A DNA stretch of 26,575 nt, taken from positions 1-26,575 of IMG/VR virus record IMGVR_UViG_3300032050_000692; one strand, written 5' to 3'. The notes under the pieces were generated by a model. That model was given only the letters and a program-made list of their open reading frames with translations, ran no database searches and was not told the DNA's origin. Positions 20,448 to 25,061 of this stretch are shown in pieces. Numbering within the stretch: position 1 is the stretch's first letter; the number at the start of each line of letters is the position of its first letter. The position numbers were made by a program, and so were the translations under genes. The DNA is from a virus. Its lineage: Duplodnaviria > Caudoviricetes.

Positions 20448-20456
20448 TGACGTAAT

Positions 20457-20505
20457 GTCCCTTTTAGGGGACTTTTAACCCCCTATAAGTCCCTTTTAGG
20501 GGACT
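20457..20505. repeat. Two 17-bp direct repeats GTCCCTTTTAGGGGACT, each a near-palindrome, 32 bp apart
   Basis: Copies at 20457-20473 and 20489-20505. Confidence 0.9.
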
Positions 20506-20760
20506 CGTATAAATCCTCTGTAACGTAAGAGCAGTATAGGATATAGAAGATTTTTTGTGATTTCACGCTTGATATTATTTGGGAACCTTCTTTCAGTAGT
20601 TAAGGGTATAGCCTTATATACCAAAAAAATTTTCAGGGTATGGCCTAAAAAATACACCAGTGGTTTAAAAAAATATACCCCCCCCCCTATTCCCTGTGGG
20701 GAAAAACTAAGAAGAGGCAATAGTGGTTACCACCTAGACCTCGAACCCCTACTAACTTTT

Positions 20761-21219: not shown

Positions 21220-21288
21220 ATGGAGACATACATCATAGTAGACGGTGTTGTTACTATCCTCGAATGGGTAGTAAACACCAACGCATAG
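21220..21288 (+). CDS. Candidate 22-aa microprotein METYIIVDGVVTILEWVVNTNA
   Basis: Same CCTCTAAAACC leader as the 98-aa gene, C-ending codons, double stop TAG TAA. Confidence 0.45.
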   Translation: METYIIVDGVVTILEWVVNTNA

Positions 21289-21336
21289 TAACATGCGTGA
21301 TAAACACAGCCCTTTGACTAGGGCTATGTTTAATAT

Positions 21337-21427
21337 ACTCTCATCCAATAGGTAAATGTGGGCCATCAGAAATGATGTCTGCTTCAAATGTGTCACATAC
21401 ATCAAGGATTAGAACCTTGTGAGAGTA
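21337..21427 (+). ncRNA. tRNA-shaped structured element
   Basis: 7-bp closing stem ACTCTCA/TGAGAGT plus A, directly preceded by a 5-bp stem with 7-nt loop (CAAGG-ATTAGAA-CCTTG); internal CATCA-GAAA-TGATG hairpin. Confidence 0.4.
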
Positions 21428-21462
21428 CTAATCTAGGAGATGATACGTAGGCCTAGCTACAA

Positions 21463-21612
21463 TTAACTAATCTGCACCATTCTCACTTCCCAAGGGTGAG
21501 CAGTTGTAATATACTCCCAGTAAATTTGCCTATAAGGTTTGGGGTTAAAACACGTAAAAGTAGCCAGTGAAACAAATGGTTGTGGTATTACAACTGAGTG
21601 CAGAGGGGTTAA
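21463..21612 (+). ncRNA. Twister-ribozyme-like pseudoknotted RNA (P1-type variant with long P5)
   Basis: P1 TTAAC/GTTAA, TAA, P2 TGCA/TGCA, P4 CTCAC/GTGAG with loop TTCCCAAGG, P5 CAGTTGTAATA/TATTACAACTG, 3' GAGGG. Confidence 0.6.
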
Positions 21613-21640: not shown

Positions 21641-21844
21641 ATGAACACAATCAGATTAATCGGAAGACTAGCAGTAAGCATGCTAATTGTAATCTTATTC
21701 GAAGGCTTATTAACATTAGGATTGGCCTTTAAATCAGAGATTTACCAATCTCCACTTGCATGGATAGTACAAGTACTAATAGTATGTGGTACAGTATGGT
21801 GGGCTGCTGAATGGCATAACGAAGAAACAAGTAAACAGTCATGA
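21641..21844 (+). CDS. Small membrane protein (67 aa, two hydrophobic segments)
   Basis: Start reassigned to ATG 21641 (MNTIRLIGRL...) after the CCTTTAAAAC leader. Confidence 0.75.
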   Translation: MNTIRLIGRLAVSMLIVILFEGLLTLGLAFKSEIYQSPLAWIVQVLIVCGTVWWAAEWHNEETSKQS

Positions 21845-23482: not shown

Positions 23483-23568
23483 AGTCAGGTGGCGGAATGG
23501 TAGACGCTAATGGTCAAGTATGTGAATCTAACCGCATACTGTTACAGGTTCGAATCCTGTCCTGACTA
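23483..23568 (+). tRNA. Atypical tRNA-Leu-like gene lacking a canonical anticodon arm
   Basis: Acceptor AGTCAGG/CCTGACT plus A73; D-arm TGGCGGAATGGTAGACGC; T-arm ACAGG-TTCGAAT-CCTGT; the middle is one 8-bp hairpin with loop AATCTAAC; no encoded CCA. Confidence 0.75.
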
Positions 23569-23620
23569 CTAGACAGCTTGGATAGACAAGCATTTTTATT
23601 AATCCTTTAAAACTTAAATT

Positions 23621-23881: not shown

Positions 23882-24195
23882 GAGAGAGACAAAAATTAAC
23901 AGCAGGAATGTATGTTAAGATGAGTAATGATACTACTCAGCATGCAGCAGGTCTTACAAAAGACAAAAAATATAAAGTATTTGATGTAGAACATCTTGGA
24001 AAAAACACTTATTTCAGTATTATAAATGATCACGGTACAGCAGTATTGTGCATATTTGACAAATGTAGTTTGTTATATAAAAAGGATTGGGTTATAGTAT
24101 CTAACAGCATTTTAGATAATGAAGTCTATCAAGCATTGTTATATTTCTTTGCAGGTATTGGTTTTGGTTATTTACTATTTAATGTGATATTATGA
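23878..24195 (+). CDS. Hypothetical protein with SH3-like N-terminus and C-terminal TM anchor
   Basis: LTKDKKYKV...F.IINDHG pattern; hydrophobic C-terminus; ATGA overlaps. Confidence 0.65.
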   Translation: MRERQKLTAGMYVKMSNDTTQHAAGLTKDKKYKVFDVEHLGKNTYFSIINDHGTAVLCIFDKCSLLYKKDWVIVSNSILDNEVYQALLYFFAGIGFGYLLFNVIL

Positions 24196-25061
24196 AACCT
24201 TCTTTAGTAGAAAAAGTCAGTAGAAAGACTTTTAAAATCAGAGAATCAGGTAGATCTAGCGACTATATAAGCCCCTCATTTGGTTTTGGCTGCTTACTAG
24301 AATGTGGTTACTGCTACATGAAGCGTCATAAACCAAAGGGGCTTAGTGTTGCTAAGAATACAGGTGATATATTAACAGAGATTAACAATCATGCATTCTT
24401 TTATGCTGATGTTCCTAAACCTAATCAAACAGATGAACATTTTATTACTTACGATATTGCATGCAATGAAGACTTTGCGCTCCATGCCAAGTATCACGAT
24501 TGGCAAAGAATATTTGAATTCTTCCGCACGCATCCTATTGCAAAAGCTACACTTGCGACTAAAATAATACCTATTGACTTTCTAGAATACAATCCTGAAG
24601 GTAAAGTAAGAATTAGATTTAGTCTAATGCCACAAAAGATATCAAGTATATTGGAACCTAATACTAGTTTAATCATCGATAGAATCAAAGCTATTGATGC
24701 ATTTATAGAAGCAGGGTACGATGTACATGTTAACTTTAGTCCTGTAGTAGTATATCCTGGTTATTTAGAAGACTATGCTGAATTGTTTGAAATGTTAGAG
24801 CATTATGTAGATTATAAGGATCAAGTAAAAGCTGAAGTAATTTTCTTGACTCATAATAAATCTAAGCATATTTACAATCTTATAAATAATGTACCAGGTG
24901 AAGATTTGTTATGGACTCCTAACAACCAAGAGACTAAAAATTCACAGTACGGCGGAGAGAATATTAGATATCAATTAGCTCTTAAAGCTAAATATATCCA
25001 AGATTTTAAAACTTTACATGATTCTATAATCCCTTGGAATACAATTCGTTACATTTTTTAA
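24192..25061 (+). CDS. Spore photoproduct lyase-like radical SAM protein
   Basis: CLLECGYC (CX3CX2C), YDIACNED, ATK, RIRFSLMP, E..TS.I..RI.A...F.EAGY.V..NFSPV, consistent with the SplB family. Confidence 0.85.
   Translation: MKPSLVEKVSRKTFKIRESGRSSDYISPSFGFGCLLECGYCYMKRHKPKGLSVAKNTGDILTEINNHAFFYADVPKPNQTDEHFITYDIACNEDFALHAKYHDWQRIFEFFRTHPIAKATLATKIIPIDFLEYNPEGKVRIRFSLMPQKISSILEPNTSLIIDRIKAIDAFIEAGYDVHVNFSPVVVYPGYLEDYAELFEMLEHYVDYKDQVKAEVIFLTHNKSKHIYNLINNVPGEDLLWTPNNQETKNSQYGGENIRYQLALKAKYIQDFKTLHDSIIPWNTIRYIF

Follow-up and report, generated by a model that had tools for sequence, protein, structure and literature searches.

The RNA element at positions 21463 to 21612 of the window (here the whole 26,575-base virus record that was analysed) is best read, with a probability of about 0.58, as one copy of a mobile cassette of crAss-like phages, built on a re-wired twister core that is likely to be self-cleaving in its normal form, while a two-base insertion, UC, likely leaves the window copy inactive. 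Intact copies would be cut, as predicted, between U and A, which would split the leader of a phage RNA module and leave a 5'-OH RNA consisting of the folded core and its insert, often running into a small gene. In the window copy, loop L1 would be closed into an almost continuous helix and T1 could not assemble the active site, so that the element would persist as an uncut stem carrying its insert ahead of a 67-aa gene.

The carrier phage and its genomic setting

The window represents a genome with an estimated completeness of about 20%. Judged from its proteins, the carrier is a crAss-like (Crassvirales-type) phage: the capsid protein matches the Pfam profile Crass_capsid with an E value of 1e-82, and CrAss_Ring_3_4 is also encoded (E 8e-24, Pfam), which provides both the capsid and the tail ring expected of such a carrier. 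Protein comparison with cultured crAss phages gave about 30% identity (capsid), and a BLAST search of the element region against cultured phages returned no meaningful match. The portal, terminase and capsid genes are located on the minus strand. Small plus-strand genes occupy the region from 20.8 kb onward, and the 150-base element lies within a gene-poor part there.

The 3' end of the element is separated by 28 nt from the ATG at 21641 of a 67-aa ORF, which is followed by three further hydrophobic ORFs; the downstream cluster of small ORFs is thus as hydrophobic as the original prediction had it. The distance of about 30 nt to the gene, given in the same prediction, holds for the 3' end of the element, whereas the predicted cut would lie 172 nt upstream. 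The transcript carrying the element would be an early one, to go by the gene layout; a promoter scan of the window gave 8 sites against 7.8 in shuffled sequences, which is no excess.

Several other features of this region were observed. A gene of the spore photoproduct lyase (radical SAM) family at 24192-25061 (+) adjoins a thioredoxin gene, and a tRNA-Leu(TAA) is encoded at 23483-23569 (+); in L115 and L036, a similar tRNA starts at most about 10 nt 3' of a family element. Between the divergent gene blocks, at 20456-20506 and 20625-20700, a short inverted-repeat unit is directly repeated and long A and C runs occur; this may be an origin, a genome end or a promoter region. A 22-codon ORF with an A-rich start at 21220-21288 (+) is conserved in L121-L126.

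Layout of the element

When the sequence was read directly, all stems and loops were found where they had been claimed to be (Table 1; the labels P0-P5, T1 and T2 and the rice numbering are those of the cited twister papers). P4 of the window copy encloses TTCCCAAGG at 21487-95, and G-AGGG stands at 21603-07. According to the comparative wiring described below, the two C residues at 21477-78 have separate roles, the first belonging to P2 and the second to T2. The predicted fold of the window copy contains a 7-bp helix extended by the UC. The two hairpins described inside P5 are present in the sequence; their stability is no better than that of shuffles (z +0.93).

Table 1. Features of the element and its immediate surroundings in the window
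Feature	Position	Strand	Remarks
Upstream 39-nt module	21427..21473	+	8-nt direct repeat at its borders, 21427-34 and 21466-73
P1, 5' strand	21463..21467	+	TTAAC; pairs with GTTAA 21608-12
U-A-A of loop L1	21468..21470	+	by analogy with twister, a cut would fall at 21468/21469
UC insertion (TC)	21471..21472	+	lineage-restricted; pairs with G21603-A21604
P2, 5' strand	21473..21477	+	TGCA 21473-76 and C21477; 5 bp with 21598-21602 (TGCA 21599-602)
T2, single C-G	21478	+	C would pair with G21494, by homology to twister C14-G30
A-rich linker, 3-4 nt	21479..21481	+	where P3 would be; ATT 57, ATAA 53, ACAA 47, other 8 (n=165)
P4 and loop L4	21482..21500	+	CTCAC 21482-86/GTGAG 21496-500, 5 bp, plus U21487-G21495
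Loop L4	21488-21494	+	5' strand of T1 at 21489-21491
P5	21501..21596	+	conserved 11-bp basal stem 21501-11/21586-96, enclosing an exchangeable insert (about 75 nt)
3' half	21597..21612	+	A21597 linker, P2' 21598-602, putative catalytic G21603, A21604, T1' 21605-07, P1' 21608-12
First downstream ORF	21641..21844	+	67 aa, two hydrophobic segments, without family match

A large family with covarying stems

The exact 19-mer that makes up P4 and L4 was found in at least 119 viral stretches, and about 160 are estimated to exist. Among 106 distinct contexts of this 19-mer, 94 could be parsed on both sides, while 12 remained unparsed owing to contig ends, deletions or variant P5 stems. The bases of the twister catalytic type, at positions that the search pattern did not fix, are kept in nearly all parsed homologs (A+1 91/94, A+2 91/94, G 91/94, A 92/94), and A+1 and A+2 directly precede P2 in 91 of the 94. 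All of these bases are intact together in 86 parsed copies; eight are altered in L1 or T1. A strict pattern for the 3' half was present in 42 of 50 large records, which had been chosen for already holding a match, and occurred twice in six of them, with none found in the reversed control. Capsids were detected in 16 of these 50 records and share only 22-49% identity with the window capsid, so a near-identical RNA core is common to very distant phages. Part of this conservation may reflect recent spread by recombination, which is counted against the favoured reading. In a scan of bacterial genomes, true elements occurred at 10 of 21 loci. All ten belong to metagenome-assembled bins, the phyla being unrelated, and isolates contributed none; these are probably binned phage DNA.

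Variant-directed scans, with all P4 pairs formed and a 3' half present as requirements, yielded 165 compact elements, in which T1 occurs as CCC/GGG (105), CAC/GTG (23), CCA/TGG (20), CCT/AGG (4), TCC/GGA (1) and TCA/TGA (1), with 11 mismatched. The covariation test proposed for the CCC/GGG pseudoknot is thus answered by five compensatory triplet types, the three pairs being formed in 159, 160 and 159 of the 165. P1 pairs 1-4 form at least 3 bp in 47 of 89 homologs against 13.0 +/- 3.1 when shuffled, despite unrelated flanks. An alignment of 37 sequences (the window and 36 of 41 diverse elements) has 96% paired cells, compared with 31-49% in slid controls; neither its pairing nor its covariation was equalled in any of 500 shuffles. 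Each of the five P4 pairs covaries. Left out were five elements whose 3' halves are broken or were mis-parsed (L012, L451, L123, L157 and L170), so the 100% T1 pairing of this alignment is inflated relative to the 159-160 of 165 in the wider set, and the window's own P1 is misaligned in it. Some positions were fixed by the search patterns. On this comparative evidence, P1, a 5-bp P2, P4, the base of P5 and a three-pair T1 covary in twister order.

These results bear on the idea that the twister resemblance is a chance arrangement of short stems. Two observations would suit it. The fold of the window copy taken alone reaches a z score of only -1.99, with 8 of 200 shuffles equally good, and searches with Rfam models gave no match to the window element, either at the gathering threshold or at E<=10, nor did they ever match the element in 20 UC-free loci, even with permissive cut-offs. 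However, covariation of P1, P2, P4, P5 and T1 in twister order, together with the size of the family, rules out such an arrangement for the fold, and we regard this explanation as scarcely credible. The Rfam check that had been proposed ends without a match to the element. The Rfam twister-P1 model matched one of the 50 large records. A twister-P3 match at window 20437-88 (E 9.5) was dismissed as noise.

Side by side with complete copies, rod-only relatives occur in L005, L023 and also L107; they consist of P2 and P5, lack P4/L4 and have the cut-site bases paired.

A probable re-wiring of P2, T2 and P4

It was originally proposed that T2 is a compensatory two-pair CC/GG helix. This is contradicted by the alignment, in which C21477 covaries with G21598 and not with G21495. 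Among the 165 compact elements, the pair 21477-21598 is C-G in 132, U-A in 30, U-G in 2 and C-A in 1, across many P4 and T1 types. Of the 32 elements with U at 21477, 30 have A at 21598 and 31 retain G at 21495; in two cases G21495 is replaced by A opposite C. In the alignment, 16 double changes affect the P2 pair and one affects the T2 pair. P2 is thus composed of five pairs and T2 of one, C21478-G21494. The latter is nearly invariant (C-G in 164/165, U-G in 1/165; a scan for elements with a base other than C at 21478 gave one true element, with U, among 56 matches), so that this pair is assumed by homology to twister rather than proven by covariation.

The extra U noted in L4 is present, but it is a family-wide feature and not a peculiarity of the window copy. 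The pair 21487-21495 is U-G in 162 and U-A in 3 of the 165 elements, with U fixed by most patterns; the pair below it is C-G in 146, U-A in 12, A-U in 5 and G-C in 2. In an expanded subfamily, extra arms of 66-194 nt are located exactly between 21486 and 21487, and the sixth P4 pair is C-G in 33 of 34 complete elements (the expanded set comprises 81 distinct matches from 109 loci). Expanded elements with two extra arms inside P4 were observed at L443:915-1175 and in L466-L574. U21487 would most simply pair with G21495 and mark a second insertion site; since the changes at this pair are one-sided, we hold this with moderate confidence. Taken together, one pair appears to have moved from T2 to P2, giving an arrangement of 5+1 instead of 4+2, and the freed G would close P4. 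The total of P2 and T2 pairs stays at six, so a stack like that of twister is plausible.

The UC insertion

The UC noted in the original prediction is not shared by the family at large. A scan for a base other than A before P2 gave 17 matches, five of which were true elements, and all five carried UC (L253 (=L075), L254 (=L121), L258 (=L122), L259 and L263). Its presence in five other contigs shows that the insertion is real and not an assembly error; at the same time, against a family of well over 160 members, it is a rare allele as far as the sequences compared here indicate. A metagenome scan for the upstream module together with the element gave no real match among 119 because its pattern was too loose, and the UC census is thus that of the viral contigs only.

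The proposed pairing of UC with the putative catalytic G-A in a 7-bp helix agrees with the predicted fold. In a 305-nt context, the pairing probabilities of UC with G21603-A21604 are 0.9998 and 0.98. The putative catalytic G is unpaired with a probability of 0.00 in all four distinct UC copies, whereas the median for 130 UC-free copies is 0.98 and only four of them fall below 0.1. The fold with an open L1 costs 6-8 kcal/mol in UC copies, according to a folding model that leaves out tertiary energy, pseudoknots and Mg2+. The twister arrangement of an open L1 with A-A next to P2 is lost in the window copy, in which UC separates A21470 from P2. Signs of decay are found near UC in its relatives, with the first P1 pair lost in L104/L122 and UAA gone in L259/L263, while every UC copy has kept L4 and T1 whole. 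Based on the folding model, UC most likely inactivates the window copy, and it is for this reason that the window copy probably does not process the transcript, contrary to what had been suggested.

The UC pairing with the catalytic G-A makes an inactive copy more plausible than the switchable ribozyme that had also been put forward. According to the latter idea, the window copy would still cleave, slowly or as a switch: Mg2+, temperature, an antisense RNA or a protein would make the UC flip out, so that G21603 becomes free. In the window copy, T1 and every catalytic-type base are undamaged, the UC allele is maintained with three or more insert/gene combinations, and the folding model does not include tertiary energy, all of which would be compatible with such behaviour. 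Nevertheless, the penalty amounts to 6-8 kcal/mol with a pairing probability near 1, and even a flipped-out UC would still part A21470 from P2, where the sheared pair must stack. A register shift by two bases, considered as a way to rebuild the active site, was rejected on the sequence, as it would put a G in the place of the conserved A and leave only two T1 pairs. Moreover, the allele is rare, relatives lose a P1 pair or UAA, and no alternative partner for UC was found. We therefore consider slow or switched cleavage improbable, and useful cutting by the window copy is doubtful to the same degree. The intact L4 and T1 and the neighbouring genes of UC copies (in L075, the adjacent gene is 67% identical to that of the window, 137/205 nt) fit neutral shuffling but also selection, and this is counted against the reading of the window copy as jammed.

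As for the origin of the insertion, the second copy of the 8-nt repeat that bounds the upstream 39-nt module includes UC. The module lies upstream of the UC copy in L075, L104/L122 and L121, occurs without a UC copy elsewhere in L034, L080 and L094, and L034 also provides the junction without the module. The position of UC inside the bounding repeat and the L034 junction make a recombination scar a plausible origin, and UC may thus, tentatively, be attributed above all to the arrival of this module.

Other modules were observed upstream. A short module at 21433-21461 (+), conserved and containing an inverted repeat, is also present in L034, L075, L080, L094 and L104, and its order relative to other modules varies among loci. 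A tRNA-like module at 21336-21429 (+) had no Rfam match; its outer stem of 8 bp surrounds a variable inside, and a 5-bp hairpin whose loop has 7 nt lies at the 3' side. Eleven distinct copies were found elsewhere; their interiors vary, and the outer stem shows one compensatory change. The module of the window differs from that of L122 in both conserved loops, which may be taken as a further sign of drift.

Swappable inserts and flanks

The P5 span in the family ranges from 38 to 312 nt, and grouping of 187 distinct P5 inserts gave 150 classes unrelated to one another, 30 of which occur with more than one downstream context. Only mild structure is seen in the inserts (median z -0.85; 17% below -2; n=130). 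In L122, the downstream gene is identical to that of the window (204/204 nt) and the insert is different, and the window's insert is joined to other 3' flanks in contigs from RNA libraries. Upstream of the counterpart of the window's 67-aa gene, L443 carries an expanded, UC-free form, and L441 and L442 have no element within 500 nt upstream of the same gene. Recombination through the conserved flanks would be the simplest reading of this exchange of inserts and flanks. Translation starts that are rich in A are typical of phages of Bacteroidetes. An ORF with such a start was found within 70 nt downstream in 59 of 173 copies, compared with 5.2 in shuffles.

Four RNA-library contigs from one study, which carry the window insert in another phage context, stop at 21482-21485 without loose ends. 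These stops lie 13-16 nt inside the predicted cut, and contigs from a run that is probably DNA stop at 21491-21494. Because the DNA-run contigs stop nearby and a repeated core would break assemblies, the contig ends say nothing on cleavage.

Does the family cleave?

In our analysis, intact (UC-free) members probably cut. The catalytic bases, the covariation of P1 and T1, the neighbouring ribozymes and the tolerance of P5 arms in twisters that have been tested all make cutting likely. Within 1.5 kb of family copies at the 20 UC-free loci, a twister was found in 1/20, a pistol above the cut-off in 1/20, weak pistol matches in 2/20, and a weak partial hatchet match also occurred. The twister, a twister-P1 at L028:2534-2598, shares the letters of P2 and L1 with the family and scores 57 bits (E 3.5e-10), below the gathering score. 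The other nearby candidates, pistol or possibly hatchet ribozymes, are located at L060:2224-2283 (the pistol above the cut-off), L021:160-219 and L080:1-91. All of these lie in the corresponding leaders of related phages.

Published work on twister can be read in both directions. In the sections of PMC11662667 consulted, natural twisters tolerate P5 arms, the length of the L1 strand is not correlated with cleavage, and imperfections just 3' of the cut site go with a mean cleaved fraction of 0.19. In the rice twister, any substitution of G13 leaves less than 0.2 activity, and A40C, suspected by the authors to extend P2 at the cost of T2, has an activity of 0.09 (PMC5113685). As far as the consulted part of PMC5408937 goes, the active site may be disrupted if P2 gains or loses pairs, P4 is closed by an essentially invariant G-C, and the A that follows the cut-site A has to make a sheared pair with G, stacked on P2. 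Read from its sequences, the family departs from twister at G13, in the number of P2 pairs and at the G-C closing P4, and these departures are counted against cutting.

The same departures support an alternative in which the whole family has stopped cutting and serves as a twister-derived scaffold that protects or displays swappable inserts, so that UC costs nothing: the changes in T2, P2 and P4 match those that cripple the rice twister. Broken copies are, moreover, not rare (8/94 altered in L1 or T1, 12/106 unparsed), relatives reduced to the rod of P2 and P5 with a closed L1 exist (three distinct matches in L005 and L023), and two insertion sites hold a great diversity of inserts. In contrast, U-A-A, G-A and the bases of L4 persist through a wide range of P4 and T1 types. 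P1, next to the cut site, covaries although its surroundings are unrelated, known ribozymes lie in the same region, and the inserts show only mild structure. A family that has altogether ceased to cut is thus unlikely, although it deserves to be taken seriously. A bolder proposal keeps cleavage and adds a purpose: the family would be a modular platform for RNA expression, with a still-cutting 5+1 core, two insert sites, and cutting and non-cutting alleles swapped by recombination that decide whether the insert and the downstream gene are released as a 5'-OH RNA. We rate this as rather improbable.

Returning to the favoured reading of a normally self-cleaving cassette, the window copy is probably a built-in negative control, and its insertion-free relatives are the ones of interest. 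If UC-free members cleave, they would be a natural active twister with one pseudoknot reduced to a single pair; an arrangement that is near-fatal when approached by mutation in the rice ribozyme would then work in nature, and the consensus would need revision. This would also explain why well over a hundred phage copies are missed by Rfam. The reason why phages carry self-cleaving RNAs is still called unknown in the part of PMC6765202 used here. Close relatives provide matched natural alleles (intact, expanded, UC-jammed and absent) in front of one and the same small gene, which offers a direct way to ask this question.

Comparison with known systems

The literature searched contained no description of the re-wired form, which may nevertheless have been listed before in other papers or supplements. 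The closest known system is twister type P1 (RF03160; Roth et al. 2014, rice Osa-1-4; the consulted part of PMC5408937), which has the same order of elements, P1-L1-P2-T2-P4/L4-(P5)-P2'-G-A-T1'-P1'. The family shares with it N-A-A at the putative cut site, G-A, a three-pair T1, the U..A-A-G in L4, the C-G of T2, an optional P5 and proximity to other ribozymes in phage DNA; like the rice twister, it has no P3. In contrast to the 4/2 pairs of P2/T2 in twister, the family has 5/1, and P2 of the window copy is predicted to have 7. A pyrimidine occupies the position of G13, the closing pair of P4 is U-G or C-G where twister has its invariant G-C, and, unlike in twister, P5 abuts P4 and carries unrelated inserts, with a second insertion site inside P4. 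A non-circular permutation of twister was considered and rejected, as the order of elements is plainly that of type P1; no such permutations had been found according to the part of PMC10085705 consulted.

Thus, the family has the covarying P1-P2-P4 order of twister-P1, its three-pair T1 and its A-A before and G-A after P2. Four defining features are missing, namely a two-pair T2, a four-pair P2, a G-C closing P4 and a score at the Rfam gathering level, and the window copy also lacks an open L1. For this reason, it is filed as a twister variant and not as a member of RF03160. The original prediction had left a choice between a twister variant, a switch and a new RNA class; a variant related to type P1 is what stands, nothing found here points to a switch, and a new class is too strong a term.

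The natural imperfect twisters tested by CHiTA (PMC11662667) resemble the family in that an imperfect P1, long auxiliary arms and a variable L4 length are tolerated; changes just 3' of the cut, comparable to the window's UC, are those with the low cleaved fraction given above. Non-cleaving structured RNAs that lie beside ribozyme-associated genes are known as RAGATH. Such RNAs, as treated in the consulted part of PMC6765202, are likewise conserved phage RNAs of a ribozyme-rich region; no Rfam model of these motifs matches the family, which in contrast to them keeps the twister core.
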